DNA of 63,071 nucleotides, the filler included, from Collodictyon triciliatum (lineage: Eukaryota), in assembly GCA_043381765.1 (NCBI GenBank). It is 5 parts of 5 records of this genome, joined end to end, with 100 filler letters (N's around TTAATTAATTAA, not from the genome) between each part and the next. Parts side by side here need not be neighbours in the genome. Positions count along the whole stretch, not along the records: positions 41,377 to 55,315 come from JBHJMP010001228.1; 4 more parts are not named here. One strand, 5' to 3'. A program made the position numbers and the translations under genes. Below, one piece after another: positions 9,228 through 59,579 of this stretch. Numbering within the stretch: the first letter of the stretch is position 1; every line of letters begins with the position of its first letter. The notes under the pieces were generated by a model, which saw only the letters and a program-made list of their open reading frames with translations, was not told the origin of the DNA and ran no database searches.

Positions 9228-9309
<82 letters not shown>

Positions 9310-20242: not shown

Positions 20243-20648
20243 CTGCGAGCAATTCTTTTCATGAGGGCAGGATCGGCAATTTTGTATTCCACAGTTAAGT
20301 GTACAAGGGAAGGCGCTGGTGTAACAAAGTAACTGAGAGTGTACAGCGAAGAAAAAGAAGGATATGAAAGGGGGAAAAAAACAAGGCTATTGAAGAGGCT
20401 TGNNNNNNNNNNNNNNNNNNNNNNNNNNNNNNNNNNNNNNNNNNNNNNNNNNNNNNNNNNNNNNNNNNNNNNNNNNNNNNNNNNNNNNNNNNNNNNNNNN
20501 NNNNNNNNNNNNNNNNNNNNNNAAAAAAAAAAAAAAAAAAAAAAACGGGGCAAATATTCTCAAGAGGGGGGTGTGGGACCTCTAACAGAACTTTTTTTTT
20601 TTTTNNNNNNNNNNNNNNNNNNNNNNNNNNNNNNNNNNNNNNNNNNNN

Positions 20649-20660
20649 TTAATTAATTAA
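20649..20660. other. Artificial contig-joining linker TTAATTAATTAA within N runs
   Basis: Identical palindromic six-frame-stop 12-mer embedded in N spacers at four places in the window. Confidence 0.95.
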
Positions 20661-20703
20661 NNNNNNNNNNNNNNNNNNNNNNNNNNNNNNNNNNNNNNNN
20701 NNN

Positions 20704-20704
20704 N

Positions 20705-20801
<97 letters not shown>
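20704..20801. repeat. (TAGA)n microsatellite in a Vti1 intron at the contig end
   Basis: Perfect tetranucleotide run. Confidence 0.98.
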
Positions 20802-25172: not shown

Positions 25173-30901
<5,729 letters not shown>

Positions 30902-31838: not shown

Positions 31839-34336
31839 TCAGTGTCGGTCTGGGTCGGGGTCTCTTTTGTTTTCTTCGTTGTGATAAAGCGGGCCGAACA
31901 TCTGCTTTTTGTATGGCCTCCCTTTCACCTTGACCTCCCAAATGACAAAATCGTCTGTGCTGAAGACCTTGTTGAGATTTTCACGGAACCACTTGCGATT
32001 GATTTCGACGCCCTCCATGCGGGTGACACCATTTCCAATAACGACGTAATCTATCCCATGGTCCCGAAGAAGGTCCAGCGCGTTTTCCTTGCCACTGTAA
32101 ATCTGGCGGGCAACTTCTTCTCTTTCACCCCAGTTGTAGCCACGCGAGACTAGCCAGCCCTTCAAGGGTATATTGATGAAAGGGTTACAAAGAGGGAATC
32201 GACATTGAGATGAGAGGGGGTAGCTTTTGATATCATTGTTTTGAAGAGAGAGAAAGGAAGAAAGATGAAAAATAGACCCAAGCGGGATTTTTTTTTTTTG
32301 ATATTAACATCACGAGATGGAAAGAATATAAATGAGAGATAGGATATAATAAGTGTACTGATGCAATCAATAGGGAAAAAGAGAATAAAAAAACAAAGAT
32401 ATATTGCCTTGTATCCGTAGTAGACCGATTTTCCTCCGATGCACAGAACTGGATGGTTATGCCTTGACCCGATGAGAAAAACAGACTCTGGCCCGGTGTG
32501 GTCTCTGACCCATTCTCCGATGATAATGTCATTTGCTGAGAAGAGAGCATACTGCTCGCCAATCTCCTTTTTCACGACACACACCTAAATCGAGCCGCAT
32601 AGGATTATTGAAAGAGCGTAGCACTTATACGTTTTTCTTCGCCTGTGAACTAAAATTAGTGTATATATAAAAAACAAAAACAAAAACAAAAAACAAAAAA
32701 CAAATAGAAACAAATGAAAAAACAAAAAAAATATTCTCACGATGCCAGGAATCATGAAAGAGAGCAAGAGGGCTGAGGCCAAGAATGTGGCGATGTTCCC
32801 ATAGGAGCAGAGCCTGTCAAAGACGAGGGCAACGAGCATGGCGAGGCCAAAGTAAGCGATGTAGAAGAGCTTCATGTTGTCGACCTCCCAGGGCTGGAAC
32901 TTGAAGAAGCAGGAGACGGCAAAGAGGAGGCAGAAGCCGAGGGAGCAGACGCACTGGCGGCGGGTCTGGAGGAAGAGGCCTGCGGCGGCAACGTAGAGGA
33001 AGAGGCCGAGGCAGGACCAGAGCCAGGCGAGGGGCTGCTGGTGGGCGTGGGACCACATGGGCTCGTAGACGGCAAAGCCCCAGCGGGAGGCGCCGGCCAT
33101 GAAGGAGACCATCTGGGGGAGGCCGAGCAGGAGGGCGGGGGCGGCCCAGGCCATGGCGTCGAGGAGGAAGGCGAGGAGGACGGCGGGGATGTGGGGGCTG
33201 CGATTGTGGCTGTGGCTGTGGCTGTGGCTGTGGCTGTGGCTGGCAAGGGTGAGGGCGAGGTCGAGCAGCAGGGTGGCGGGCTGGACCACAAAGAGGGCGA
33301 TGAAGGCGTGGCCCTGCAGGTAGGGCAGCAGCCCGCAGAGGACGCCGGAGAGCTGCAGGTAGCGGCGGCGCTCGCGGCGCGGTTGGACGGACGATTTGGG
33401 GTGGGGGTCGTCGAGGGCCAGCCACATGGCGACGAGGGCGGCGAGGGCGAGGGTGTAGGCAAACATGGCGGAGCGCTGGGGCAGGAAGATGTCCTTGACA
33501 AAGAAGAGCCAGAAGGGCGGCTCCGTGAAGGCGTAGTTGCCGCCGCAGAAGATGGTGAGGAGGACGACGGCGGCGGCGGGGATGTGGGGGCTGCGATTGT
33601 GGCTGTGGCTGTGGCTGTGGCTGTGTGCGAGGAAGCGCAGGGCGGCGGCGTAGAGCATGCCGCAGAAGGCGAGGGCGTGTGCGGCGGAGGGCAGGAGCAG
33701 GGCCCAGCGCTGGGAGAGGCCGCCGCGCACAAGCATGGCGGAGAAGTAGTCCGGGATGAGGGGGTAGGCGAGGCGGTGGCCGTCGTAGATGACCTCGCTC
33801 ATGCGCAGCAGCGAGAAGGCGTGGGAGTTCTTGCCGTAGAGGAAGGAGTTGAGCACGGCCATGTGGAAGGGCAGGTCCGAGTAGCAGTTGCCCCCGGTCC
33901 ACCACTCGCCCCCGACCGCGTCCACCACGTGCGTCTTCATGATCAGGCACAGCACCGCCCCGGCCGCGAGGACCACGCCCTCCGCCAGACGCTGCCCGCG
34001 CGCTGCTGCTGCTGAGGGTGGTGTTGTTGCAGAAGAAGAAGAAGAAGAAGAAGAAGAAGAAGAGGCAGAAGGAGAAGAAGAAGAAGAAGGAGTCCCGCCC
34101 CGCCGCGTCCACCAGTGCAGCAACCCCCACACCGCTGCGTTTGCACACAGCAGCCCGCTCTCGCTCAGCCCCCCGCCGACGTGCGAGGCAAACAGCGTGG
34201 CCCACGACACCACCGCCGCCCCGGCCGGCACGCTCGCACACGCCCGCTCCAGTGGACTCAGCCGGGGGAACAGCAGCCCCAGCGGCGTGTGTGCGCTCGC
34301 AAAGGCCGTCCACAGCGTCCACAGCGCAAGCAGCAT
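31839..34336 (-). CDS. Polytopic membrane protein, GT-C-fold glycosyltransferase-like, three exons
   Basis: More than 10 hydrophobic segments; luminal YSDLPFH..LNSF, L.YPLIPD, LPQRS, FQPWEVDN.KLF; C-terminal EWVRDHT...VF..., GY.GWL.S.G, LL..HGIDYVVIG. Second intron appears to be GC-AG. First exon is very GC-rich. Confidence 0.7.
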
Positions 34337-34414
34337 CCGGCTCTGATCTGTGTTTTGCGTTATGTTGTGTTATGTTTTTGCTTTGTTTTTTTGTTTTTTT
34401 TTTTTTGTTTTTTT

Positions 34415-40950: not shown

Positions 40951-41150
40951 CTAGGAAAAGGCAGAGAACAAAAGGAAAAGGAAAAGGAAAAGGAAAAATG
41001 CCAACTTAAGGACTAAAAACGGTTTTTAGAAAAAGCATGTCCAAATTTGTTTCGTGGTATTTCATGACAAGGTCATGGAAATTGTTTTTTTGCTTTTTTT
41101 TGTTTTTTTTTTTTGTTTTTTGTTTGTTTTTTGTTTTTTGTTTTTTTTTT

Positions 41151-41219
<69 letters not shown>

Positions 41220-41320
41220 TTTTTTGTTTTTTGTTTTTTTTTGTTTTTTTTGTTTTTTTTGTTTTTTTTTGTTTTTNNNNNNNNNNNNNNNNNNNNNNNN
41301 NNNNNNNNNNNNNNNNNNNN

Positions 41321-41332
41321 TTAATTAATTAA
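41321..41332. other. Artificial contig-joining linker TTAATTAATTAA
   Basis: Six-frame-stop 12-mer within an N spacer. Confidence 0.95.
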
Positions 41333-41388
41333 NNNNNNNNNNNNNNNNNNNNNNNNNNNNNNNNNNNNNNNNNNNNACCTATACAATA

Positions 41389-44341
41389 ATGAATAGAATC
41401 TATGTTATTACTACCTTAAATAACCCAAAACACCCAAGGTATGAAGGTGGTTATGTAAGCAGCGGCGATGCTCACAATAAATTTACTTATGGAGTAGAAA
41501 GACAAGGAACACCAGAAATTGAAACACTCAGACGAAAGCTAATAGATAATTGGAAATACTCCAGCACAAAGCTTCCTAATGAACCAAAAGAAAACCTCCA
41601 GGCAGATGCATCAATGGCACCCTCTCATCCTTTCAGGGCTCATCATACAGAAGCTTTAAGCGAGCCTAGTACAGCAGCCCCTTCAGCAGCCGCTTCAAGA
41701 GCGCCTTTACCACCTGAACGACAAGAAGAAGATTTTGAAGACATAAACCCAGACGCACTTGATGCAGACAGACCAATACTACAAGGAGCAGCACCGAGAG
41801 ATATGGACACTGCTCAGACAGAAGCTACAGAAGAAGACGACGGTAGACCTGCAACACCTAAAGAAGAAGAAAAAGACGAGAATGCAGTTATCTTAGACGC
41901 AGATGAAGTCAGTACGCGTTACAGTCTGCTTCGAACACCTTTTCAGCCGGCACCAAATAAATTTTTGTTTTAGATTACTTACAGAAACGTAAGAAATTAA
42001 TACCGGTTAAGACACACATCCGCGCTCTGGCCAATCGCATTTTACAATTGTTGCGTGCACGAGGAGTGTTACAATACACATACTTTCCAAAGTTTCAACC
42101 CACAGGAGACTATGACGACACAGAATGGAACACAGCAGAACAACCATTAGACGAGTACCTCACCGCAGAAGAAGACAAACACTTTACAATGTCTGGTTAG
42201 ACGAAGAAATCAAAGAACTAAAAACCGCCAGACTAATTCTTCTTTAGAGACTGTCCGAAGAAGAGCTGATTGCTGAAACTATATTAGAGCGCAGACTGAA
42301 TATAGAGCGAGAAGAAAGACGAGTGGAACGAGAAGCAAGAAAAGCCAAACAAGATGAGAGAGACGCAATGATTAAAGCAACCAAAGCTGCAGGAAAATAA
42401 GCAGCATCAGTAGCCGAACAAGTATCAGGACCAAGTGTCAAACAACAAATCGTAGAACTGCGAAATCAAAAAAAAAACATTGCTTGATCAACTACCACAA
42501 TTACGGCCACAGGTACCTAGCTCACTCGACCCGTCTTTCAAATCCAGAATGATGTTGATATACATTGAGCAATTAAGAGCATAAAAACAAATACAGTTGG
42601 AAGATATTGATACTTTTGACCAACCAGTCAGAACGAACGAATTTGAAAAAGCTACCAATGAATTGTTAACAAATGTAATCCAAGCGCAACGCCTTAGACG
42701 CGCAGCAATGCAGCAAGCGTATTTAGCAGAAGTTGAAAGTGCTCTTTACCATGGAGAAGATGACATGTCACGACTTGATCAGCAGTTAGTAGAGATAGAT
42801 GGGTTACTATAACAAGATATGCCCACCGACGATGATTTTTTACGAGACATTGCCGCAATGTTTTTAGCTGCACAGGAGGAAGCCGAAAAACTTCCAGCAG
42901 AGAACAGATAACTTTTAAACGAGTCAATGAAATCTTTACAAGAGAAAGTAAGTGTCACCAAACAATGTTGAAATATCTTTTACAGAGCAACCACAAGAAA
43001 GCAACACACTTCCAGCCACCCCAGTATCTCAATCATATACGCAAAGGGTGTCTGGATTCGGAACAATTGCAACAGGTGATAATAACACCAGGAGAGAATG
43101 ATTTGTAGCTCCGCCCCAGTTTGGAGAAATATATTCGATGAGTCCCACACACCATGATGAAACTATCAGACAACTGCGACAAGAAGTAAATGAGCTGAGA
43201 GAAGAATTTGTAAGGATGCAAGCTGTAGCTGCCGAAGCCACTCAAATGTATGACAGACTATTCAATGATATGTTGAGAATAAAAGACTTTAACGAAATGG
43301 CTCGCGCAATGGACGCCAAGGCATTATCTGCCATACGCGAGAGAATCACACAGTTGACACCTCGCAGACCAGGCCAATAAAATGTAAAAATTTACACACA
43401 ACCCACCCAGATAACCCAGACTAGCACTCCACTACAAGCAATCAGACAACGACAAGACCCTGATACACCTGAGAAAAGTCAAGGTATTATGGTAGTCATT
43501 ACGCCACACAAAAAAACCACAACTGCAAGGTGGGCAACCGGCAGACGACATATCACAAGTCACAGCGGGAAAACAGCTAAAATTTGTCCTGTACTTTCAT
43601 TACCTGCCCCTGATCAACCGACGAGAACATTCCCCGACCCGGCGGTACAAGAATTAAATGAAATTTCGAAAGCCTTGACCGTCAGACTATGTCAGACAAC
43701 TAGAAATCTATCACAGGCCAAGAGGTCGACCCCCAGCAGAGCATTGACAATCACACAAGGCGATTTCGTAAATGCCAAGCAGCTGTACATTGAATAACTC
43801 AGAAACGTCATGATGATATTAAGATGACAAATAGACAGTCAACGTCTGGCTATCACGGGCAGCAGAACCCCAACACCTCCACAGAACCTAGAATTACAGA
43901 TTGCTCAAATCAAAGCAGAATACGAAGAGTACAAAGCCAAAGAGACAGAAAGAATAAAGGCTTATAAAGCTGCATTAGAAGCAAGGCAAAGACATTTAAT
44001 AAAGTAGCATAATCAATGATAAAAATGTCTTTAGTAATGTCAAAAGTAGCATCGAGCCGTTAACTATAGCTATTAAAACCGCTGCAAACGACATGATCAC
44101 ACTTGAAAAACTGAGACTACGACAGCTTGGATTCTATAAGACCCTTGATTAAGAGCGACAGGCACAGATTGTGAACTGGAAGCAAGATAAACGGGAGTCG
44201 AACCAAATGCAAAAGAAGGAGGCAAGAACATAAGACTAAAGCTGATCATCAACCGTGCCAACGATAAGCAAGCTAGAAGCGTAAAGCTATGAGAGGAAAT
44301 GGCAGAATTCTAAAACCGAATCGATATATTGATACAAGACC

Positions 44342-44439
<98 letters not shown>

Positions 44440-44885
44440 CGACAGTCAGATGCCCGAAAACAGAATTTACTTGCCCAGAAATAGACCCATATAGATGAAC
44501 TAACAAGACAATTTTGCGAGAAAGCAGATCAATTAGAAGCTCAAAATGTTGCCCCTCTACACCACAAAGAAATCCCTTGTTACCTACTGCAACTACAGCC
44601 CCACAGATTGGCCTTAGTCCGAGAGACCGAGCTTTAGAAATATTACGGGCTGAGCGCGCTGCTGATGCCGAGGCATATAACAGACTGCGAAAACAATTTG
44701 AAGCACAGGACGGTACAGTTCAGGCACTTGCCCGAGAAGGCCAAGAACGAGAGCAAGAAAAAGTATTACTTGCCCAGGAAAACATTGACCTGCGGGCCAA
44801 TATACAGAGACTGAGGGCAGAAAGAACGGAAATGGGTCAAGGCGGGGAGCAACACCACCAAGACAGAGACAACCACAAAATTTAA
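41389..44885 (+). pseudogene. Large disrupted Glu/Gln-rich coiled-coil viral gene (about 1100 codons originally)
   Basis: Successive ORF fragments of similar composition continue in frame across single stops and resume after frameshifts. Confidence 0.6.
44341..44440 (+). repeat. (CAA)n microsatellite, probably poly-Gln in the viral coiled-coil gene
   Basis: Perfect trinucleotide run; the frame ..RIDILIQD-QQQ..RQSDARKQNLL reads most protein-like. Confidence 0.9.
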
Positions 44886-44899
44886 ATCCAGGTAATAAT

Positions 44900-45610
44900 A
44901 TGGCTGCACCTTCAACACGTTATTTTACTGCCTCCCAACGCCTAGGAGGTCATAATCCTCCTACACCCTCGTTTGTTGGAGCTACACCAAGCATGGTACC
45001 AGTATTCGCACAAAACAGACCGCAAGTCATAGACTCTCGAGACACATCCAACACTAGCAGATTTGCTCAGAAAGTGTCATGGTTCTATGAAACAGCCGCC
45101 CCAGGTACAAAAAACACCACATTCGCTTTTAATTCATACGACACATTTTTGAATTCTATGGCAACTTATGGCATCGAAGCAGTTGACATGACCAGCGACA
45201 CTAGCTACCTCGAAGATATTGTAACACAGTTTTATTTTTGTTTAAAAAGACAGGACCTTAAAACAACAATTGCCAGTGCGACAGCGGCTGGAGCTTGGCC
45301 TCTCAAGTATCAACCAAAGTATGGAGAAACCAAAAATGTCAGTACTAGGTCGGTCACCTTCATGAACAGATCACTTGGGCAAGTAGTAAACTCGGACATG
45401 GGTACAATTTTTGTGGGCTCACAGCCCAGCAGTGTTATTCGCAGACAGGGCCTGAATTATGTCGTGAGTGGTCCGCGCGGTGAAAAGGCAGCCTTTGAAA
45501 CAGCTCGAAACGCTCAATATTACTCTACGGCCAAAGGCAAGAGGTATGGCCCGGTGACTGGGAGTGTCTTTGGTTATAAACCTAAAAACCTTTCACAGGC
45601 AATTTACTAA
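44900..45610 (+). CDS. Intact 236-aa viral hypothetical protein
   Basis: Uninterrupted ATG-to-TAA ORF that ends tail-to-tail with the fibre-like gene; no motif recognised. Confidence 0.7.
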   Translation: MAAPSTRYFTASQRLGGHNPPTPSFVGATPSMVPVFAQNRPQVIDSRDTSNTSRFAQKVSWFYETAAPGTKNTTFAFNSYDTFLNSMATYGIEAVDMTSDTSYLEDIVTQFYFCLKRQDLKTTIASATAAGAWPLKYQPKYGETKNVSTRSVTFMNRSLGQVVNSDMGTIFVGSQPSSVIRRQGLNYVVSGPRGEKAAFETARNAQYYSTAKGKRYGPVTGSVFGYKPKNLSQAIY

Positions 45611-45639
45611 ACAACTTTTACGATTATGATAAAAATTGT

Positions 45640-47776
45640 TTACGAGTTCCCTGATCCGAATATAACGAACTTGCCGCGAGTTTGGTCACATCTTATTTCC
45701 CATACACCTCTATTTGGGATATTTTAAAAAGTTCTTGAATTAAATGTCGGTGTAACTCCGCCATGAAATAGATTTATAGTATCTGAACAAAATTTTTTTC
45801 GGACATGAGCATTTTGAGGAGAATCATAAAGATCGTACCTAGCTACTTTGACAGTCCAACCGTCTGGAAATGCACTTACACCTGGAACATCTAGATTTAC
45901 AAACGAATTACCTATATTGGCCATGCTGGCCGTGACTAGAGGCGGTCTGGTTAAACCAATATTATGATCCACAAGAATTTCTTCATACCATACATATTTA
46001 TTGATTGGAGCTAGGGTTTCATGAATACGCCTATCAAATTCTGTTTGATCAGGTCTAAAAATCACGTTTCGACCCGAGTCGACAGTCACACATATTTCGA
46101 ATACCCCACTGACTGTCCCGCCTCGGATACAATTTGTCAACGCAGCAGTTGTACCAAACAGAATTTCATTCATTGAGGGTATCCTAATTGAATTTGGAGC
46201 AATATGACCGCCCACGGTTAGATTTTCGGTAATCGATGCGCCACCAGATGATGAAAACCCAGTAGCTGTAACTGTTCCGGGGAACGTAGCGTTTCCAGTC
46301 ACCCAACTTGTAGTAATATACCAAGTCGTTTAAATAGCATTGTATACACAGTAGTATGCTGTGTTTATGGATACAATCACATTAATACCCGCGCCGAAAG
46401 TAGATTATCCGCCGTTTTGGTAAATTCTTAAACTCACGTTAGTACCAGTTTCCCCTTGAAACCTTAATGTCGCACCGGAAAGATTTGAGTATGGCATAAT
46501 TACAAATGAAGTCCCGTTTGAAACACTTGAAAATCGAAGTGTCAGCGGAGTAAAAGACCCCATGTTAATTTTTTTTGGTTAGTGTTTAATGGGTCTAAAT
46601 CCCAGGTCTTACTGTTTGCTGTTGCTGAAATTGTATTTACCGCACTAATAAGATTTCTATTTACTGTCAATTGTTGGACACTCGACCCCGTTGCCCCAGT
46701 TACTGTGAGATCACCGGATACACTCATACCATCGTTATTGATTTCAGCTCTGAGAACTCGCGTCGGCAAAGTATTACCTGTTCCTATTTCCCCTAGAAAT
46801 CTGAAATACGTATTTCCGTGCTCAGTTACAAATATTTCATTTGGTCCCGAATCTCCTCAAAACCTACTCATCACTGTTTCAGTCGCTTGCGATTGTGTCG
46901 CGTTACCCAGCCTGTAAGTTGCTACATTGACGACTCCTGCGCGGTTGTCAGTAAACGAGAGCTGTGCAAACCCAGTAGCCCCGCCATTATTTCCCGTATA
47001 CCTTAAATTGCTAACTGGATTGCTGACATTGTTTTTGATCGTTGCTGATCCTGATAGTCTCAAATTTCCACCGACAAAACTACAAATCTGACTTCATCCG
47101 GAGACCATCCCCACACCCGAGTCAGAGCCAACAATCGTTCGGACTATAACCGCATTAATTGGACCTGTCGGGCCAGCAAAATTAATAGCTGGAATAGATA
47201 ACGTTCCATCGGGAACAGTAAGTCCTTCATTAATTATGATAACTCTCTCAACTCCGTCCGTTTCAATTCGAATAACATTATCAGATCCCCGTATTCCCAG
47301 TAGACTTAATACTGGACCGGTAGGCCTCCCACAGAACCATCTATGTTTTCACCAAACAAAAGTGTGGGTTCCAATGCCGAACCTTCTCGAGAAAGATTCA
47401 GTGTACTAGAACAAGTCACAAAAGCACCAGGCGCTCCACCAGTTGTTAAATTTTGTGTCCAACCTGAACCTTTATCGATAGCAGTTAGAACTTGCCCTGC
47501 TCTTGATGTGCCTATTTTTGGCACTTGTCTGACAGCAGCAATTGTTGTGTCCGAGCGTAAAAATGATTGTTACCTGAACCAAATGGCAGACAGCTAGCTG
47601 CTGATCCATTTGTTGTAAGAACGGCGCTGAATGTTTGAGGAAGCAATTCGGCCGGGCTCGTTGTTTCCTGGAGCTATTCTAAGTAAACCACACTTGGACT
47701 ACTTTGAGTAATTTTGTTTGCGTCTTGATTGGTAAATTCCGGTACTTCTTTTTCTTGTGTTATGAAAAACCCTATT
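45640..47776 (-). pseudogene. Fibre / receptor-binding-like beta-rich protein, disrupted
   Basis: Gly/Thr/Ser/Val-rich fragments such as GLTVPDGTLSIPAINF, VSGDLTVTG, TGNATFPGTVTATGF and ENLTVGG resemble tail-fibre shaft repeats; lies directly downstream of the penton gene. Confidence 0.55.
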
Positions 47777-47791
47777 GCCTTGACCAAGAAT

Positions 47792-48556
47792 TTATTCCTC
47801 TGTAATTAAACGCATCGTGAGACTGTAATCTTGTAGTTGATTAACTGTCCGTCTCAGTCTGTCTACCAATCGGAAATTCTAGCTGAACGGAATATACGAG
47901 CAGTCTATCAAATTCTCGAGTATATTGTCATTCACCTCATAGTAACTTGAATACCTAGCCCCAAGAATGAGCGGAATCTTTGCGATAATCCCATCGCCTT
48001 CGATGTTGCTCGCAAAACTTGATGACTGGACACTTGGGCTCACCAGGTACACATAATCAAACGGACGAACATTAACTATATTATGCAATTAAACAAATGA
48101 GATATTGAATGAGAGATTTGCTGTCAGTCCGATAAGTGATCTACATGTACTAAAATTCACAAACAGCTCATATGAAATAGAAGCACCATCACCTTTGTTT
48201 GCTACTTTTTGTTTGCTGGTCAAAAGTAAAACTGAGACAACTGCATTGGGTGACTGAGAAGCTGTCACTGCGTTCATCTTTGTTCGAATACCACTCACTA
48301 TTTATTGGATTGTTAACAGTCCAGTCTCAAGCGTAATATTGTATGAAACAGGCTCGCCACCTACAGTATAAAGAAAGGCTAATTCATTACTGGTCGATGT
48401 GACATTGTGTACGGCATTAGGTATCTGAATACTCTCTAACCCAATCTTTGCGGCACTCGACACATATCTGTTTTGTGTGGTTGCGAAATTAAAGTCTGGA
48501 ATGCTGCTGCTCTCTCGGTTGGCAGAATCAACGTAGATGTAAAACTATTTGTCCAT
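47792..48556 (-). pseudogene. Minor capsid protein (penton, single jelly roll) with four in-frame stops
   Basis: One frame reads MDK*FYIYVDSANR..F.F...IGLESIQIPNAVHNV...NE..F...ITLETG....YVYLVS....GIIAKIP...FRLVDR....DYSLTMRL*, the motif order of Polinton/PLV pentons. Confidence 0.78.
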
Positions 48557-48588
48557 ACCTTGGCAAGAAAAAATTTCTCTGCGGTTGT

Positions 48589-48956
48589 ATGAGTGACCCA
48601 GAAATCATGGATACCATTGAAAGGCCAAAAAATAAACGCGTAGCATCGGAAATGCAGAGCAAACTTAGCCAAAATCCAGCCAAAAGCCACAGAAGCAAAA
48701 AAGAAGAACAAGGAAATCGTTCAGGCCGTCAAGAAATACGAAGCTGTGATGAAGGTTGTCCCCGATTACTCGTCGATGCAAAGTGACTTGTCTCTTATCA
48801 AGCGGTACCTTACAAAGGAAGAGGCTCGCAAAATCGAGAAGCGCAGAACCAAGGAAATAGTGGACAAGGCCCAGGTGCATGAACTCTCGTACGACAGTGA
48901 ATTATTATTTCGTTAGAGATATAAAGAAAGCAAGAAGATCAGTAATGCTGTGGTGA
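48589..48956 (+). pseudogene. Small basic viral ORF, frameshifted
   Basis: MSDPEIMDTIERPK, then a shifted frame ..ANLAKIQPKATEAKKKNKE..; sits between the penton and ATPase genes. Confidence 0.4.
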
Positions 48957-49645
48957 GTCCTCTGAACACCGTCAAGAAAAACAAGCGTGAGGTGATTATA
49001 GAAATACTACCAGGCGCAAAGTCTGACAGACCATTCTGGATGCTTATAAGTGCCAAAGTCGCTTCAGGTAAAACAACTCTTATCAGCAATCTGCTGGACA
49101 AGAAAGAAGTGTATCACCAGATATTCGATAAAGTGTATTTCTGCTCGTCTAATATATCCTGGGGCGAAGTTCATTATTCCTCGTACGACGGTGTAAAGTT
49201 TCACAGGATTCGAATATATGAGGATTTCAATGAGCAGATTTTTTAACAAGTCACACAAGACATAATGAAGGACCCCGATTTCAAGCACATCGCGTATTTG
49301 CTCTTGGTGGATGACCTCGGTACTGCTTTTGAACGACCCAGTAAAACACTGCTAAAGAAGATGTTGCAGCACCGTCACTTTAGGCTCTCTATGATGGTGG
49401 TGGGGCACGCCATTCGTTTATTTAATACCAAGGTACGTCAGAACGCCTCCCATCTCGTTTCTTTCTTTACCGACAACAAACACGAACGGGAAGCCCTTAA
49501 TCAAATAACAAACCTCGATCAGAAACTGTTTGGTCAGGTCTTTGACTTTGCTATTGCTTATCCCTATTGTTTCCTCTACGTCAACTTACTGACCCCTCGC
49601 AGAATCAAAGCTTACAAGAAATTTACGGAAGAAATCCTGTTTTAA
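48950..49645 (+). pseudogene. A32-like (FtsK/HerA) genome-packaging ATPase with one internal stop
   Basis: PFWMLISAKVASGKTT (Walker A), FDKVYF.S, LLLVDD (Walker B), RH, VRQNA and Y.FLYVN; both halves share a frame across TAA 49244-49246. Confidence 0.9.
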
Positions 49646-50146
49646 TATCTAGTCTTAGGTATGCTACGACTATATACAACGGAAGGCAAATTGTTGTTCT
49701 CTAGTTTTGAAGAACTGAAAGAATATTGTGACAAGCTAGAGGCATTAAAGAAAAAAAAGGGAGGGGCAAGAAGAAGGCCACATATGTATGGAATCATAGA
49801 AGGTCCCGTCAGGGTAAATTTTGATTGACTAGTATCCTACAAATCCAGCACTTCTAGCATGGCCTTGTAGCTTAGAATTTTTCCTCTCTTGCTTTCCTCC
49901 TTACTCTTTTATATGCATATATATTCTTTCTTCAAAAAAGAAAGAAGTAATCACGACATATGTAAGATACGTAAGATATTTAAGAGTAGTATAGGGAAAG
50001 AGAAGAAAAATTTCAAGGGAACTATTCTACAAAAAAGCCAAAAACATTCTGCCGAATCTTGCACTTGCAGGATACAAAAATAGTGCTCCAAATCGTGGCT
50101 TCAAGATATTCGGACAAATACAAATAACAATCTACCGTACTACAAT

Positions 50147-52472
50147 ATGGACATAGGTGTTTTTATGACCAAGAACAAAATAAAGTATGCCTATGCGCAT
50201 TACTTGTTGGTTGAAGGAAAGAAAGAAACCGTTCTCGAACAAAAAATAAGAAAGAGAGCGAACTGGATGCCTGGAGAGAAAAATCCAAGAGATTTCCAAG
50301 GAATGCCTGTGTTCTTGCTACAAAGCGCAAACTAAGTCAAGAAGAAAGGAACAGCTGTGTACGATGTTATTCTATCTAACTGAAATATTCCGACGTGGTG
50401 GTTATTGATTGTGATGAAGCTAATATTGGCACACCAAGTCAGTTGGGACAAGCTTTGGGCATACCAGGATTTACGGATCAAATGTGCTGGACGCAAGGAA
50501 ATAACAAAGGCATACATATATGTGTCAAGAAACCGGCATCTTGGCAGCAGCGTTGGGAAGGAACAAAAGTTTTGGGTTTGGGAATGCCGTAAATTGACAT
50601 CATAAGTCACAAAAAAATGTGTGAGAGAGAAGACAAACTGATGAACAATGAAATACAAGAATTCGACTTTGCACCTCTACTGGAAATGTACAAGAAAAAA
50701 AAAGAAAGGAATCAGAGAATGTAACTGTGGTTGAGAAAGAAGGTGAGACGGAGAACATATTCAGAGCTCCTCTTGATACATACCCTGTTTACGATACCCG
50801 GGCGACATGTGAATATCTGGTAAAGTCCGCTTTGATCTTGGGCTCTTTATACTTCTCGATGGGGATATGACTGCTGAGTCAAAGTATGTTATATTCTATT
50901 GTACAATGGCATTTTTGATCTGTCAAAATATTGGTTAGCAATCTGTGCGCAGATGCCTGACACAGGAAACTATACTACTGAACAGAGAATGGACAAGTTG
51001 AAGCTCGTGATTGACAATGTGCAGAAAGGCACCCCTACAAAAAAAGTTGGACTGGGGACCTTGTTTGGTATGCTTGCCAGAGACCTTGAAGATGAAAATT
51101 ATAAGCAGTTAGTGGAGCAAGTGAATGATGAGCATGGTCTGTTTGCTTACCGATACATGAAAGCGGATTTTGAAGTCGATCATTTTATCATGAGCGGAAA
51201 GATAACCCGCGCTAATGAAGAGAAGAGTTTGCATGTATATTACCATGCAGATGCTAGATATCAGTACAGACATCTCGGGTGGTGGGCCTAAGTAAACAGG
51301 GTTGAGTTTGTTGATGCTCTGAGACAAGACCCAGAAAAAAGAGTGATAAGTTAACTCGTGATGCGCCCAGACTTGCCCAAAGAATTGGATAGTAATTATC
51401 CAAAGACATACAACATATTTCAAGGATATGAAATACAAAAGCACGGCGACGTACACGAAAAAACTAGAAGTGACGAAGACGTCGAGTTTTGCGACCAAAT
51501 TATCTTAAAAGTGATTTGGATGCAACTTTGTAATGCGGAAATAGATGCATATAGATATGTGCTGCAGTGGTTTGCCCATTTGATATTCGCTCCCCACGAA
51601 ATGGACAGATTTCACACTTGCTTAGTTTTCTATTCCGAAACAGGAGTTGGAAAGTCGTTTATTCTTCAAGACCTTATATTGAATGCTGTAATTGAGACAC
51701 AGTACGGGGTCAAGACCAGCAAAATTACAGAGCTGTTTGGCAAATTAAACGATTGATTGAGAACAAAACGTACATAGTTTGGGAAGAGGGTCGCCGCAGT
51801 GACGCAGTGCCATTGTTTGATGTCATGAAAGACACTCTAGTTTCAAGAGACATTGTGATTCACAAGAAAGGAATAAAAAAGTATACAACAAACAATTACG
51901 TACACATGGCGTGTGCGACAAAAAACGACTATGTAGTGTATTTGAGTGAAAACAACCGACACATTTGTGTAATTCAATGTAACGAGGAAAAACTATATGA
52001 AAACGACCAAACATCGTTAAAAGCGGCATTGAGAGACCCAAAACAAGTTTTGTTATTCTGCAGATACTTGAAAGGTTATTATGACCCAACCTGGAATAGT
52101 GAAGAGTATGTCATTAATTACCAAAGCAAAAAAGAGCACTAAAAGTCTCAGAGACTCCTGCAGATTAATCCGCTGGACCATTTCTTGATGCTGAACTATG
52201 AAGATTATGCTTCTGGTGCATGAGAAAGCAGATTTGACGCCTGGGCCGCTCCCTATATGAAACCCCATACACCAATTGAGTTTTTTGCGCTGTTTAGGAC
52301 TGTCATGGACAGAGCTGGTCGCAGAACTAAGAATTACACACTTTAATTATTTGGTCGAGAATTAAGCAAGGCAGGAATCAAAAAAGAATGCCACAGATAA
52401 TTCTTCGACGACAAATATATCAAGGAATGTCTGGACAAGAAGCAGCTGATCGACGCAGCAGATGAAGAATAA
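50147..52472 (+). pseudogene. Primase-helicase (Prim-Pol-like N-terminus, PriCT-2-like region, SF3/D5-type helicase), disrupted
   Basis: VVVIDCD and KGIHI (primase motifs), VGLGTLF, YNIFQG, YVLQWFAHL..P, YSETGVGKS (Walker A), IVWEE (Walker B), MKD...I.IHKKG...Y...N; several stops and frameshifts. Confidence 0.82.
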
Positions 52473-52504
52473 ACAACACACAGAATAAAGTGAAGAGACT
52501 TTTA

Positions 52505-52873
52505 TTATTCTTCCATGGGGCAGTAGTTAGGTGGGCTTGGTGGAAAGTAGAGGGCAGAGTAAGGAGGTATCAGGGCTTTGCGAACACGTTCAGCTGCTTC
52601 ACGCGAGGAGCCAGAGGACGAGCTGGACGACGATGCAGAGGTGCCAGAGTAATCAAATAGGGACGTCATTGCAAGTGGCTCGACGAAAACAAAATTTGAG
52701 GTTGCTGCTTTTCTTTTACCGTCGCGGCGGTTTATGTACACACGGTGATTTCGACGTGCTCTACTTCATGAGCTTGCAACCATTTGGCAAATACTGTCAA
52801 GATTATCGCCCCATTAAATGAAACACAAGTATTTGAGTCTTGCTTGTTCTTCTCCTGGCAAAGTGCGTGCCAT
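52505..52873 (-). pseudogene. Small viral ORF with an internal stop
   Basis: MARTLPGEEQ...*...VYINRRDGKRK...CPMEE*; convergent with the helicase gene end. Confidence 0.35.
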
Positions 52874-52956
52874 TAAGCCTTTAAGTAATTAGATAATTAA
52901 ACTTTCTATTTTGTTTTCAAGCTGCGTTTTTTACACAAAAAAGTATAGTAAAGGTA

Positions 52957-54410
52957 ATGAGTAATTTAAGTACCAGTGATTACAACAACAAAAGTCATAG
53001 AAAAGGTTTAATGACCCAGAGCAAGTAAATAGTGTCGATGTGCTGTATAAACATCACAACAAGGAGATACCTCGCAGCTACATAGAGACACGAATGAAAA
53101 AGAATCCATACCATCAGATCAGCAAGCCAGCGTATGAGAGCAAGGACGTGAATCCATTTAATGTAACTGATCCGAGTTATGCACAGATAGATTTGGTATA
53201 CACCAAGGGATTGTATCCAGAAAATCATACTGGATTAAGGTAAACTTATTTAATGACCTGCGTGGTGCTTTTAAACCGCAAGGTTTTTCTGTACCCGCTG
53301 ACCGACAAGACTCTGGCCGAAAGCAAGAAGGCTGTGCTTGAGTTCAAGAAAGATTACCCTGCGTTGAAAGTTATTCAAAGCGACAATGGCACAGAGTTCA
53401 AGTACGAGAAAGCGTGGTTACAAGACCACGGCCTCAAGCAAGTCAAGTCGAGTCCGTACAACCCTACGAGCCAGGCCTATGTGGAGCGCATGAATTCTGT
53501 GGTGAAGAATAGTCTGTACAAGTACCACCAAAAGACGGGATCCACCTTAACGAAAGAACTCCTAGAGAAGACTGCAGACAGCATCAACGATCAGCCAAAC
53601 CGTGACACTGGAGTGATACCCAACAACGCGGCCACCAAAGAAAATCTGACAAAGTTAATAGAAGCTAACCAGAAAAAATTAGACCGAGCCACCACATCAG
53701 TCAAAGACGACTTACTAGAGGTCGGGCAACTAGTGCGTGTGAACCTGAAGAAAACAAATTTGACAACGCAAGAGCGTAATAAATTCAAGACCAATAAAAA
53801 CTGGATCCCAAAATTTTCTGTTGCGTTGTTTAAAATTATAAGCCGCGAAGTCTCAAAGGACGGATTCAAAGCACCCACATATAAACTAAAGGCGCTGAAT
53901 GAAAGTGACTCGAGTGTATTGAAGGGGAAGAAATTTCTGCGCAGGGACCTGCAGCCTGTGGACAAAGACACAGACAAAGACTTTACGCCAAAGGTTGATT
54001 TGCTGAAGCGAGACGCTGCAAGTGTAAAAAAAAAGAGGGGGCCGTATTTGGCTTCGAACGTGCAGGATGCCCGCGCCGACTTTGATAAGAACGTGTGGAC
54101 ACCAGACACAAAAAATTTTACAAACCGCACTGGTAAGAATGCATTGAGCAAGCCAGGACGACAAGCCGAGCTCGATAAATTAGAACCGAAAGTAAAGAAA
54201 GCATATGATGCGTTTGTCGCTAAGCACGGAGATTCCCCTAAAATGACTACGCTACAAACTAAAAACTTTAATAAGTTGAAAAGAGTTTTAGGCGTTTTAT
54301 TGCAGGTACAGCCTACGGAAGAGGTTGCTGTAAGTAAGCCGATAACTGTGGAGCAAATTAAACCTATTAAGCGTCGGAAGATGACCGTGGTTTCTTCGCA
54401 GGCCTCTTAG
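52957..54410 (+). pseudogene. Retroviral-type (rve, DDE) integrase of Polinton type; N-terminus disrupted, 385-codon core open
   Basis: QIDL (D1), IQSDNGTEF (D2), VERMN (E), N...R.TG..P, EVGQLVRV and FS..LFKI; in-frame TAA at 53241 separates D1 from D2/E. Confidence 0.92.
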
Positions 54411-54948
54411 ATTTTTTTATCTCAGTACTGATCTCCTTGGCCAGGGCTACAAGCTCGTCTGGCTTTTTCTCTCTTTTCTGCGCTTCATCCTTGTCTTCTT
54501 CTTGAAGCATTTTTTCGACCTTGGCTACAACCTTGCGTTTCTCTGCACGAGCAGGGGCGTTCTCCATATGTTTTTTCAATCCTTTTTCTCGCTTGGCTTT
54601 GTTGGCTTCTTCACTCTGTCGATAAATGTCGCCGATGTCTTTGGTGTTGTTGGTCCATGACTTGCCATAGTTTGTCATGCCGAGGACCTTGCCCTCTTGG
54701 TCTTTCCAGAGAGCGTCTCCGATTTCATTCTGAATCAGAGACACAAACCCTTGATTGACCTTGGCTGGGTATTCCTTGCCTTGATAAGTTCTAGCTCTTA
54801 CTTCATACATAATGTAGTCACCTTTCTTGAGGTCACTGTATTGAACCTTTGTGTAGTCCTTGTCGTCGGTAGGCAAGGCGGTCTTGGTCTTGGGTTTTTT
54901 GGCGTCGTCTTCGCTGGGGGTTTTGCGGACATACTTGCGGGGCGGCAT
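54367..54948 (-). CDS. Basic viral hypothetical protein (193 aa)
   Basis: Intact ORF from MPPRKYVRK; LKKGDYIMY could start an SH3/KOW-like barrel; Lys/Glu-rich tail. Confidence 0.65.
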   Translation of the reverse strand: MPPRKYVRKTPSEDDAKKPKTKTALPTDDKDYTKVQYSDLKKGDYIMYEVRARTYQGKEYPAKVNQGFVSLIQNEIGDALWKDQEGKVLGMTNYGKSWTNNTKDIGDIYRQSEEANKAKREKGLKKHMENAPARAEKRKVVAKVEKMLQEEDKDEAQKREKKPDELVALAKEISTEIKKSKRPAKKPRSSSDA

Positions 54949-55038
54949 ATCAAATTGAAAGATTAGTTTTATACAAATCAAACGCAAAGGTTTTAAGTAT
55001 GTAATTAACGTAGTACTAACCATATCAAATAGATTACA

Positions 55039-55284
55039 ATGAACAGCCGTTCTTTCTATCGCCATCAAAATAAGGGTTTCAACCCGGTGGCCGAAACGTG
55101 CGTGACTGATCTGAATGTAGAGAACGTAATCGAGCATCAGCATCCACAACTGCAAAACAAAGATGCCGTGATAAAAGACGGAGACAAGGCTGCGCGTCGA
55201 GAATTGCTCAAGATAGCATTGGAAAAGAAGAAGATGGCAGAAGGGCAGAGACTGATTGTTGCCGCGTACAAGCTGAAGAAATAA
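55039..55284 (+). CDS. Small viral hypothetical protein (81 aa)
   Basis: Intact ORF divergent from 54367-54948, with protein-like composition. Confidence 0.5.
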   Translation: MNSRSFYRHQNKGFNPVAETCVTDLNVENVIEHQHPQLQNKDAVIKDGDKAARRELLKIALEKKKMAEGQRLIVAAYKLKK

Positions 55285-55359
55285 ACCGACCACACATACC
55301 ATATATGGAAGGTGTNNNNNNNNNNNNNNNNNNNNNNNNNNNNNNNNNNNNNNNNNNNN

Positions 55360-55371
55360 TTAATTAATTAA
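55360..55371. other. Artificial contig-joining linker TTAATTAATTAA
   Basis: Six-frame-stop 12-mer within an N spacer. Confidence 0.95.
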
Positions 55372-55415
55372 NNNNNNNNNNNNNNNNNNNNNNNNNNNNN
55401 NNNNNNNNNNNNNNN

Positions 55416-55449
<34 letters not shown>

Positions 55450-57923
55450 AAAAAAAAAAAAAAAAAAAAAAAGGAACAGTGCCGGGAAATGACGGGTCGC
55501 AATAGTCAGGGATACTTGTGAAAGAGGGCCACATTTTGTGTCGTTTACGGTCTTGTACGGGAGGAAAGGGAAAGTGAAGTGAAGTGAAGTGACTTTGACA
55601 GCCAGCAGAAGTGCCTTTGGCCCGCTCAAATTGCATTCTTATCAGGGCTCGTGGCTCATGTCTCATTTCCAACATTCCTTCTTTTCCTTTGTCTTAATCG
55701 ATAGTCGCACACAGACTTTGATTGATATTGTGCAAACCCCCCCCCCCCCCCCCCCAACCCAAAGAGGGGATAAGTAAGGCGAAGTAAAATTATTTTGTTT
55801 GGTAAAATGAGAAGATTTTCTTTTTCTTTTTCTTTTTCTTTTTCTTTTTCTTGGTTGCCGCTGGGCTGTGGTACTCTTTTTAACTCCCCAAGAGAGAAGC
55901 CCATGCGCCTAACTTGCAGCGCCTATGAGCGCAAGAATCAGAGCTGGACCCCAGCAGTCAACTCACGGCCTTGAGTTGGGTGAAGGCAAAAAAAAAAAAA
56001 AGGTTGTGAAAGAATAGCACAAAACAAACAGAAAAAACAGTGGAGGCCCCCACAGAAGGAACATAGAACAGCAGGAAGAAGGTGCGTGCTGCAAGACACT
56101 CATTGGTCAGTTTGTCAGAAGCCCATCCAAATCCAAAATAATACAAAGACATATGTCCTGAATGAAACAAACCACGACAAATACATAGAGACATGCCTAA
56201 ACCAAAACAAAATAAAAACAAATTCGCAGGCAAAACAACACCAAAAAATAACTGTCGAAATTTTGGACGAATCAGGATGATTTTCACGAATAAAATTTTG
56301 TGGACGCCTGTATAATGGGAAAAAAAGGCTTTGCTTGAGCGCCAGGCGGAGGATTCATCTAAGAAAACCAAAACCTAGCCCAAAGCGGGCCCGTCCATAT
56401 TTTACCATAATCGCTGAAAATAGATAAAATGTGCGAATTTTCGGTGGTTTGGAAACATTCAGCCTTCTCGACCAAGCTGGAATTCTTGGGAATCCGTTGC
56501 GATTTACGCTTTTGGTGATTAGTAACCGCCGACGGATTATTTGCAAGGCCTTGCCCATTTAGAATTTCCACCGCTAACTACACAAATGGCTGTCTCGACA
56601 ACAGAACAATTAAGGATGATTCATACGTCACTTGAATCACCCGTGATTCAGCGGTGGGGCGTATATTTTTTTTTAATATTCCACATTTTTATGATCCAAA
56701 AAGACATGCGGGACTTAATGCACTAATATATTATTTTTATAAGTAATTATATTATTTCCCACTTTTAGAAAAGGCAAAAAGGCACAAGGAAAGCGTGATT
56801 CAACCATTGTTGCCCACACAGCCACCAAACGAGCAGAATCACTCCGGCCGACTCGCCACTACTACCCTCTATCTTATGGCACTACCCCCTTGATTCACGC
56901 TTAAACCCACATCTACCCCCTGTCATGAGGAATTTCCTGACCCCACCATGTCGGAGTGAAATATAAAATGTTAATGAGGTTAATAGAAAGCCTTTTATTT
57001 TCTACTTCAATCACCACAAGGAGAGGCCTTTATCAATATAGTTTCACTTGGTGTTGATGCCTTTACGACCTTTCCTTTACATACTTTCACCACTGACATC
57101 TAGATATCGTTGCCGTTCGACACCTATGTGTTAATCAGTCCACAGCCTTTTTTTTTTTTTTTTTTTTTGCCCACAGTCCAAAAAAAAAAAAGTGAAGTCG
57201 TACAAGGGGTGAACGAAATCCACATGTTAGAAAGCAAATGCGAGCAGAAGACAGTACCGTGAAGGAGCTACCACCAGAAATGAGTCAGTGGTGGTGAGTC
57301 GGTCAGGTGGGTGAGCTGGCCGATTGATTAGCTGCATGGTGATGAAGGGTTGTGTATGTAATAGGTGATATCTTGTGACACATATCCCACATATCTCCCT
57401 CCGCCTGGGGTTGGCGTTGCAGCGAAGGCAAGGGTCTTTCCAGACAGCCTTCACCAGTACACAATCTTTGTGAAAAAAGTGGTGAGACTTTGAATACTAG
57501 TGCACCAGGTTTACCAATCGAAAGATTGATATACCCCTTCTAGCCCTTAAAAAAAAAAGAACATAATCACGCCGTATTGCCCTTATCACGCTTGCACCGA
57601 AGTTGTTTGTGGGGCCGCGGATTTTTCGACCGAAATTCGTGCAATCCAATTGTGGAAACTATAATCCCGATGGGAGCAGATGAATCAGAATCTTCGGGCG
57701 GTTTGGTTCTCGCTGTACCTCAAAGTTGATCAACAGCCACACAATTGATTTCAATCACAGGGAGAGGAAACGGCCAAAGCCCGACTGACTATTCTTTTTG
57801 TACTCAAATGTATCATCCCATGTGAAGATATTTTTTCACCACCTTCTTCTTGCACAGCCTCTTCTGTAATATGTTTTCGTTTTTTTTTTTTTCCTTTCCT
57901 AACGCAAAAGCTTTCTTCATCCT

Positions 57924-59444: not shown

Positions 59445-59523
59445 TACTTAATTATTTGTTTATGTTTTTGTTTTATAGCNNNNNNNNNNNNNNNNNNNNN
59501 NNNNNNNNNNNNNNNNNNNNNNN

Positions 59524-59535
59524 TTAATTAATTAA
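59524..59535. other. Artificial contig-joining linker TTAATTAATTAA
   Basis: Six-frame-stop 12-mer within an N spacer. Confidence 0.95.
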
Positions 59536-59579
59536 NNNNNNNNNNNNNNNNNNNNNNNNNNNNNNNNNNNNNNNNNNNN

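Follow-up and report, generated by a model that had tools for sequence, protein, structure and literature searches.

Endogenous Polinton-like viruses (PLVs) are already known to pervade protist genomes, and one more decayed copy changes little. The passages of Bellas et al. 2023 (PMC10120064) that describe them report insertions of 15-30 kb with capsid genes and, in addition, either a primase-helicase or pPolB and an integrase of rve or tyrosine type; the insertions have terminal inverted repeats (TIRs), and many copies show premature stops or apparent degradation. Freshwater PLVs of cryptophytes and chrysophytes, as described in passages of PMC12220804, carry an rve integrase, AEP-S3H replicase fusions and bacteriophage-like fibres. 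A preprint (10.64898/2026.06.19.733378) places such viruses in the Aquintoviricetes and stresses the swapping of replication modules. Here we analyse a 63,071-nucleotide stretch of DNA from Collodictyon triciliatum (assembly GCA_043381765.1; the whole stretch is called the window), in which the contig at 41377-55315 carries the genes of an element of this kind.

Set beside the endogenous PLVs in those passages of PMC10120064, the contig is alike in its replicase and integrase set, its stops and its status as a separate contig, and differs in having no capsid gene, TIR or host flank, so that its integration is something we infer. With the PLVs of PMC12220804, compared by description, it shares an rve integrase, a helicase-fusion replicase, a fibre-like protein and the freshwater setting, whereas the 1,188-residue coiled-coil and proline-rich protein of its family is not mentioned in the passages on those viruses. 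Polintons or Mavericks (Polintoviricetes), as outlined in passages of PMC11161782, share the rve integrase, the A32-type ATPase and the jelly-roll capsid module; their defining pPolB and Ulp1-type protease were not found here, and a superfamily 3 (SF3) helicase fusion is present instead. The virophages mavirus and Sputnik (6g41/6g42 and 3j26) share the penton fold with the contig and the double jelly-roll capsid fold with its metagenomic relative L003, and mavirus also carries an rve integrase (passages of PMC12220804); the contig differs from them in having no cysteine protease or pPolB and in sequence, with only 8-16% identity. Each module of the contig has already been described for PLVs, and the contig is an ordinary member of a known group.

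We read the contig as an endogenous, decayed and partial PLV copy that comes from the genome of the sequenced eukaryote and was left unplaced in the assembly, a reading to which we assign a probability of about 0.68. Its gene content and its collinearity with L003 carry the identification, and its load of stops and frameshifts carries the case for endogeny.

A single unplaced contig

The block at 41377-55315 is a single contig of 13,939 bp, flanked on both sides by identical 100-bp linkers of the form N44-TTAATTAATTAA-N44, as seen in a scan for N runs and a reading of the edges. Positions 41377 and 55315 abut these linkers and are therefore not biological insertion borders; the contig ends are assembly breaks, and the true termini of the element lie outside the view. 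Identical linkers occur at 20605-20704 and 59480-59579. The original prediction had set an intronless, gene-dense block of 14 kb against the intron-rich genes of the host. That contrast fits as a description, but the block's edges are contig linkers and its neighbours are separate contigs in arbitrary order, and the contrast is therefore one between contigs. Arguments from synteny or context across the linkers are void in this window. We take the six-frame-stop spacer to be of the type used for stringing unplaced contigs into a pseudomolecule. The features of the contig and its edges are as follows.

41377..55315, no strand: predicted decayed, partial Polinton-like virus genome, the whole unplaced contig (linkers, collinearity, homology)
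47798..48556, minus strand: penton (single jelly-roll minor capsid) gene, four in-frame stops TAG, TAA, TAA, TAG (homology, profile, model of a relative)
48923..49645, plus strand: A32/FtsK-type genome-packaging ATPase, start lost, one in-frame TAA at 49244 (Pfam, alignment with relatives)
50144..52451, plus strand: replicase, probable primase domain fused to an SF3 (D5/DUF5906-like) helicase, three frames, 13 in-frame stops (homology)
53004..54410, plus strand: rve (retroviral-type, DDE) integrase, one in-frame TAA at 53241 (Pfam, homology)
45655..47775, minus strand: fibre-like gene remnant (737 aa in L003) beside the penton, four in-frame stops, at least three frame changes (homology)
44789..45610, plus strand: open frame with the conserved C-terminal domain of a large protein (1188 aa in L003), no stops (homology at 45134-45607)
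48589..48913, plus strand: conserved gene for a small basic protein (109-118 aa in relatives), 2-nt deletion near 48655 (homology)
54418..54876, minus strand: conserved gene without assigned function (174-196 aa in relatives), no stops (homology)
41389..41973, plus strand: open 194-codon frame at the left end of the contig, acidic, of low complexity (open reading frame scan)
41974..44788, plus strand: A-rich, coiled-coil-like coding remnants in several frames (AT skew, position)
41277..41376, no strand: linker N44-TTAATTAATTAA-N44, a six-frame stop spacer, at the left block edge (N-run scan, edge reading)
55316..55415, no strand: linker N44-TTAATTAATTAA-N44 at the right block edge (N-run scan, edge reading)

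Judged by its genes, the contig is a PLV of the Aquintoviricetes type with about 85% of the genome present; PLVs of this type are small dsDNA viruses of protists with an icosahedral shell. It is assigned to the PLVs, not to the Polintons or virophages, because no pPolB and no protease was found in the window frames or in the open reading frames (ORFs) of L003. Under a PLV size range of about 14-40 kb, L003 fits with 16,409 bp, and the window contig, at 13,939 bp, is partial.

Packaging ATPase, replicase and integrase

Under the standard code the contig shows short frames only, and ten read-through frames of the window were scanned with Pfam. The packaging ATPase, read through as 48593-49828, matches Pox_A32 at 30.8 bits (cut-off 22.8) and has both Walker A and Walker B, whose columns are invariant in the alignment with relatives. 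The integrase frame 52980-54431 reaches 30.5 bits for rve, just under the cut-off of 32.6; the intact integrase of the metagenomic locus L004, which is 51% identical to it, passes at 36.5 bits and matches retroviral integrase cores in the PDB at E 1e-7. Homology in the integrase extends to 54014, and a lysine-rich C-terminal tail stays open until 54410. Both genes bear out the original prediction, which had named an A32 ATPase and an rve integrase.

Of the primase-helicase named there, the helicase stands. Its frame at 51696-52223 gives 21.6 bits for DUF5906, under the cut-off, and the L003 replicase, to which the window copy is 42% identical over 769 codons, gives 50.2 bits. A primase domain in the replicase is probable from sequence: PriCT_2 appears at 17.3 bits, below cut-off, in L004 only. 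D-x-D and G-x-H-like motifs, which we take to be those of a primase, were seen by eye in the replicase alignment.

Pfam gave no match to the pPolB family or to a protease of Ulp1/adenain type in the ten window frames or in ten L003 ORFs, the sole peptidase line being a sub-threshold Peptidase_C15 inside the L003 integrase. Neither Pfam nor PHROGs returned anything significant for the fibre-like, large or small proteins.

Penton and capsid

The window penton is 78% identical to the penton of the metagenomic locus L001. A profile built from four penton sequences matched 2,702 proteins of a representative library at E ≤ 0.001, 244 at 1e-10 and 8 at 1e-30. The alignment made from these holds 91 sequences, namely 87 of the 150 listed rows and the four locus proteins; the 63 rows excluded comprised long proteins matching in many stretches, fragments, and matches that were partial or in two stretches. 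Searched against the PDB, the 91-sequence profile found P1 of Paramecium bursaria chlorella virus 1 (PBCV-1) at 4.6e-19 and 8.6e-11 and the penton of Emiliania huxleyi virus 201 (EhV-201) at 2.5e-7, which rank first to third among the five PDB sequences found at E ≤ 1. An AlphaFold2 (AF2) model of the intact L001 penton (pLDDT 93.4, pTM 0.84) was matched by Foldseek to the pentons of mavirus (6g42_C, 7.1e-10) and Sputnik (3j26_N, 2.6e-8) and to adenovirus penton bases. The penton claimed at the outset is confirmed, and the profile comparisons on which the original prediction was to stand or fall, jelly-roll for the penton and A32 for the ATPase, both gave matches.

In the same profile search, rows P0075-P0082 and about 40 others are proteins of 778-5,374 aa that match only profile positions ~37-170, 3 to 23 times in tandem; these look like arrays of the penton insertion (‘crown’) domain.

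No homologue of the major capsid protein, the hallmark of the group, was found in a protein-level search, either on the contig or in the rest of the window. The original prediction of a decayed, Polinton-like integrating virus holds for the PLV type and for the inactivation, while this hallmark gene is absent from the contig. In L003 the capsid gene lies to the left of the large gene, and the window contig ends where its counterpart would be. The L003 protein, of 533 aa, is predicted from its AF2 model (pLDDT 77, pTM 0.81) to fold as a double jelly-roll capsid protein, with Foldseek matches to the capsid of Singapore grouper iridovirus (SGIV, 4e-15), Sputnik (1.8e-13) and mavirus (5.6e-12). 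Its fold matches proteins of nucleocytoplasmic large DNA viruses, virophages and adintoviruses alike. The best match in BFVD is at 1.7e-21, and the top three rows there are nameless. The protein has 39 homologues, on contigs of at most 17.2 kb; 36 of them were aligned with it, after one 96% near-duplicate and two partial rows had been dropped. PDB sequence searches with the capsid, replicase and fibre-like proteins of L003 returned no match.

Relatives and collinearity

Queried with an X at its break, the ATPase gave 13 homologous proteins among 437 candidates, all of about 240 aa, the best 81% identical. A metagenome scan gave 17 loci out of 380 pattern matches. Intact relatives in public metagenomes have ATPases 70-82% identical, and relatives of up to 82% identity are common there. 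One locus, L003, is a metagenome contig of 16,409 bp with intact ORFs, bounded by terminal genes. Its gene order (1188-aa protein, 737-aa protein, 267-aa protein, 112-aa protein, 240-aa ATPase, 786-aa replicase, 655-aa integrase and 174-aa protein) is collinear with the contig across 45.3-54.9 kb, as traced by local tblastn of the locus ORFs. On the contig, the C-terminal domain of the 1188-aa protein matches at 45296-45559, the 737-aa protein at 47775-45655, the 267-aa protein at 48544-47798, the replicase at 50144-52451 and the 174-aa protein at 54864-54436. In comparison with L003, L001 and L004, whose ORFs are intact under the standard code, the contig is broken, and L003 has the double jelly-roll capsid gene in addition.

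Identity to L003 is 31-36% for the penton, 56% for the ATPase, 42% for the replicase and 33% for the integrase. The closest modules lie elsewhere, in L001 for the penton (78%) and ATPase (82%) and in L004 for the integrase (51%), and the L001 replicase is merely 28% identical, over part of its length. The closest relative differs by module, and the pattern is therefore a mosaic one.

A scan of IMG/VR with the single ATPase gave no relative (0 of 19 stretches), nor did one with the capsid alignment (0 of 75); with the ATPase alignment, 14 of 215 stretches were relatives, all just 20-24% identical. Because the named relatives all carry the label ‘hypothetical protein’ and the IMG/VR ATPases are so distant, the clade formed by the contig and its metagenomic relatives may be unclassified and unnamed. 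The original prediction of a divergent, possibly undescribed lineage was overstated all the same: public metagenomes hold ATPases 70-82% identical and a collinear locus of 16.4 kb, and rve integrases, AEP-S3H replicases and phage-like fibres are already described for PLVs in passages of PMC12220804 and PMC10120064.

L003 has, at 10886-11085, an inverted repeat of 65 nt with 89% complementarity and a 70-nt spacer, next to a palindrome. It sits in the gap that directly precedes the replicase gene, where it may act as an origin or as a promoter element.

Decay of the copy

Within 2,429 homology-aligned codons there are 23 in-frame stops (16 TAA, 3 TAG and 4 TGA), distributed over the penton (4), ATPase (1), replicase (13), integrase (1) and fibre-like gene (4). 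At the aligned positions relatives have A, E, E, W, E, F, D, I, L, W, K, H, L, W, H, K, Y, V, K and W, and the remaining three stops face gaps. At least five frame changes add to these: the replicase is spread over three frames, the fibre-like gene is split into three or more pieces, and the gene for the small basic protein into two. Five genes have stops and/or frameshifts, and a sixth a frameshift only. Two indels that were examined, deletions of 2 nt at ~48655 and of 1 nt at ~51765 in the replicase, lie outside homopolymers. Where L001 and L003 have the ATG of the ATPase, the window has AAA. The accumulation of stops that had been noted from the sequence is upheld by this census, and the copy is predicted to be inactivated, with lesions incompatible with autonomous replication. 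With roughly one stop per 100 codons, the two stop-free stretches of 158 and 153 codons are unremarkable.

Window and L001 are 77.3% identical in DNA across 2,051 nt, with 7 gap openings. Synonymous and non-synonymous codon differences number 77 and 55 in the penton and 90 and 44 in the ATPase. Divergence is mostly synonymous, from which we conclude that the bulk of it built up while selection was acting and that the lesions came afterwards.

Going by the known roles of these protein families, the capsid and penton proteins of the live virus would build the shell, the ATPase would pack the DNA, the replicase would copy it, and the DDE integrase would insert it into host chromosomes. The history that we propose for the contig would begin with integration into the genome of the sequenced eukaryote by way of the rve integrase and continue with neutral, AT-biased decay; the contig may then have been left unplaced, perhaps since sibling copies or repeats broke the assembly.

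Weighing an endogenous copy against the alternatives

Integration into the host genome is likely. The original prediction had stated that the element integrated in this protist; what the window holds is a stand-alone contig between linkers. No host-virus junction is visible at either contig end, both of which abut linkers, and no target-site duplication (TSD) is visible there. Of the Polinton pattern, an rve integrase together with TIRs and 6-bp target duplications, the integrase is present; a repeat search found no TIR of at least 20 nt in the contig or in L003, and its one inverted pair, 29 nt at 76%, is noise from a CAA repeat. With no junction, TIR or TSD to be seen, the case for endogeny is therefore carried by the decay alone.

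These absences count against an endogenous copy, and several further observations do so as well. No sibling copy was found in the window: protein-level comparison gave 0 matches outside the contig, and DNA-level comparison with the rest of the window gave none. No Rfam family or tRNA was found in the window that could give a clue to the host. The left 3.7 kb (41377-45130) has no relative that could be detected by tblastn to all loci or by protein and PHROG searches. Base composition and observed/expected CpG do not discriminate: the CpG value is 0.83 for the contig, 0.79-0.95 for the host contigs and 0.84 for L001, a free relative. Among sequencing runs, the sampled words were present only in two freshwater-metagenome DNA runs, at 7% and 5%. 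Passages of PMC10120064, finally, report that apparent premature stops in an element of the protist Hydrurus vanished on polishing, and that endogenous elements of this kind often assemble as separate contigs.

On the other side, a near-perfect (CAA)35 microsatellite at 44341-44444 resembles the perfect microsatellites in which the neighbouring contigs abound, which lends weak support to residence in the genome, and intact ORFs of 450 and 594 aa on host contigs argue, again weakly, against a generally error-ridden assembly.

Of the alternatives, the one that survives best, unlikely as we consider it, is that the contig is foreign to the nuclear genome and belongs to a co-cultured or contaminating eukaryote or to defective viral DNA among the unplaced contigs. 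It is a stand-alone contig without a link to host sequence, and the freshwater runs bear on this directly. Aligned to the contig, where they cover the part to the right of 44441 with several bins there without cover, they consist mostly of contigs less than 90% alike (69 of 95 and 60 of 74), and short pieces at least 99% alike occur in the same two runs (6 of 95 and 2 of 74 contigs), so that the sequence circulates in nature independently of the assembly. None of the runs listed as containing the sampled words is an RNA sequencing run. Against a foreign origin stand the 23 nonsense codons and at least five frameshifts, which preclude replication of its own and mean that some cellular genome must carry the copy, together with a GC content (0.418) and dinucleotide profile like those of the neighbouring contigs and a microsatellite style common to both.

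Next, and likewise improbable, is an endogenous element in many copies, in which the stops and frameshifts would be artefacts of assembly or consensus among near-identical siblings and the actual copies would have intact genes and might be capable of reactivation. The Hydrurus stops lost on polishing and the tendency of such elements towards separate short contigs, both from the passages of PMC10120064 cited above, speak for it, as does an unplaced contig with non-repetitive ends, which is expected at a branch of the assembly graph. The lesions themselves speak against it: they are mostly base substitutions that create TAA where relatives have E, K, W, Y, H or other residues, a pattern that consensus errors would not readily give; the two indels examined, out of five or more frame changes, lie away from homopolymers; and the lost ATPase start requires two changes, from ATG to AAA. 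The long intact ORFs on host contigs and the lack of a sibling copy within the window count against it too.

That the contig is a strict Polinton/Maverick or a virophage rather than a PLV is very improbable. An rve integrase is present, and the best PDB matches of the penton model are the mavirus and Sputnik pentons, but such penton and capsid fold matches are common to the whole virus supergroup, the replicase is a helicase fusion, and pPolB and an Ulp1-type protease are missing from the window frames and the ten L003 ORFs. A variant code with TAA and TAG as sense codons (ciliate-type Q or peritrich-type E) and intact frames is the least probable reading. In its favour, TAA and TAG make up 19 of the 23 in-frame stops, several frames become longer with table 6, and three of the five penton and ATPase stops lie opposite E in L001. 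Against it, four in-frame stops are TGA, no single meaning fits the residues opposite the stops, the ATPases of relatives terminate where the window ATPase meets its final TAA, and the frameshifts persist under any code. Recoding with table 6 was rejected on the stop census and on the stop position in the relatives' ATPases.

Fibre-like gene, large gene and left end

The C-terminal 300 residues of the fibre-like gene remnant are 43% identical to L003 (E 3e-64). Feature neighbours of the 737-aa protein in the Atlas are phage (Uroviricota) clusters at 0.91-0.93, with a family of tail-fibre C-termini and clusters like T4 gp9/10 among them; structural template-modelling (TM) scores are below 0.3. 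Searches of Pfam, PHROGs and PDB sequences gave no match to the protein. The original prediction had named a fibre. A gene remnant is indeed there beside the penton, and its fibre-like label is a lead, drawn from the phage-tail neighbours and aided by that position and by the phage-like fibres reported for PLVs in passages of PMC12220804.

The C-terminal domain of the large protein is 37% identical to L003 and 28% to L004 (E 2e-14). In L003 this gene, at 2174-5740, is the family's largest, with 1,188 residues and no family match. The protein is laid out as a Q-rich coiled coil of ~500 residues, proline/alanine repeats of ~450 and a conserved globular C-terminal domain of ~180, and may be capsid-internal or a cement protein.

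To its left, an AT skew of +0.30 to +0.39 runs continuously across 42-45 kb, and skew and position suggest that the left region is the fast-evolving coiled-coil N-terminal part of the large gene. BLASTP between the left 3.7 kb and the N-terminus of the L003 1188-aa protein gave nothing, and unfiltered tblastn was no better than a control with the query reversed. For the 194-codon frame at 41389-41973, 0 of 279 candidates were homologous at E ≤ 0.001, and there was no PHROG or Pfam match. At the other end, metagenomic relatives still cover the contig sequence up to ~55.18 kb.

A possible host link

Host links are the main gap for freshwater PLVs. If the contig is nuclear, as our preferred reading of an endogenous copy has it, freshwater viruses seen only in metagenomes (ATPase up to 82% identical, and the collinear L003 of 16.4 kb) would be tied to a named host. 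We put forward, tentatively and with more doubt than confidence, that the contig gives an unclassified freshwater clade of PLVs, with a hallmark structural protein of ~1,200 residues and a fibre-decorated capsid, its first tie to a cellular host. The hallmark protein of such a clade would have a coiled coil, a proline-rich part and a conserved domain at its C-terminus, and would be either a giant internal protein or a cement; the decoration would come from the protein resembling phage tail fibres whose gene adjoins the penton. Were this so, the near-identical fragments in two lake metagenomes would mark the host itself in nature.

Other features of the window

At least five separate contigs make up the window, strung together at four identical N44-TTAATTAATTAA-N44 spacers, with other gaps at 20403-20522 and 30163-30784. 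Host contigs start or end in long perfect microsatellites or homopolymers, whereas the ends of the viral contig are non-repetitive; the terminal repeats, listed here, probably explain why the host contigs are unplaced.

1-119: (ATGT)30
9229-9307: A79
20705-20801: (TAGA)24
27971-28074: (AAT)35
41085-41276: 192-nt T-rich run
55416-55472: A57

One host contig, otherwise of 30-45% GC, contains an open frame of 594 codons at 32585-34369 on the minus strand with ~70% GC. Its product resembles a polytopic membrane protein and contains runs of poly-Ser and (His-Ser)n; the Atlas neighbours of this product are exclusively bacterial DUF2298-like membrane-protein clusters.

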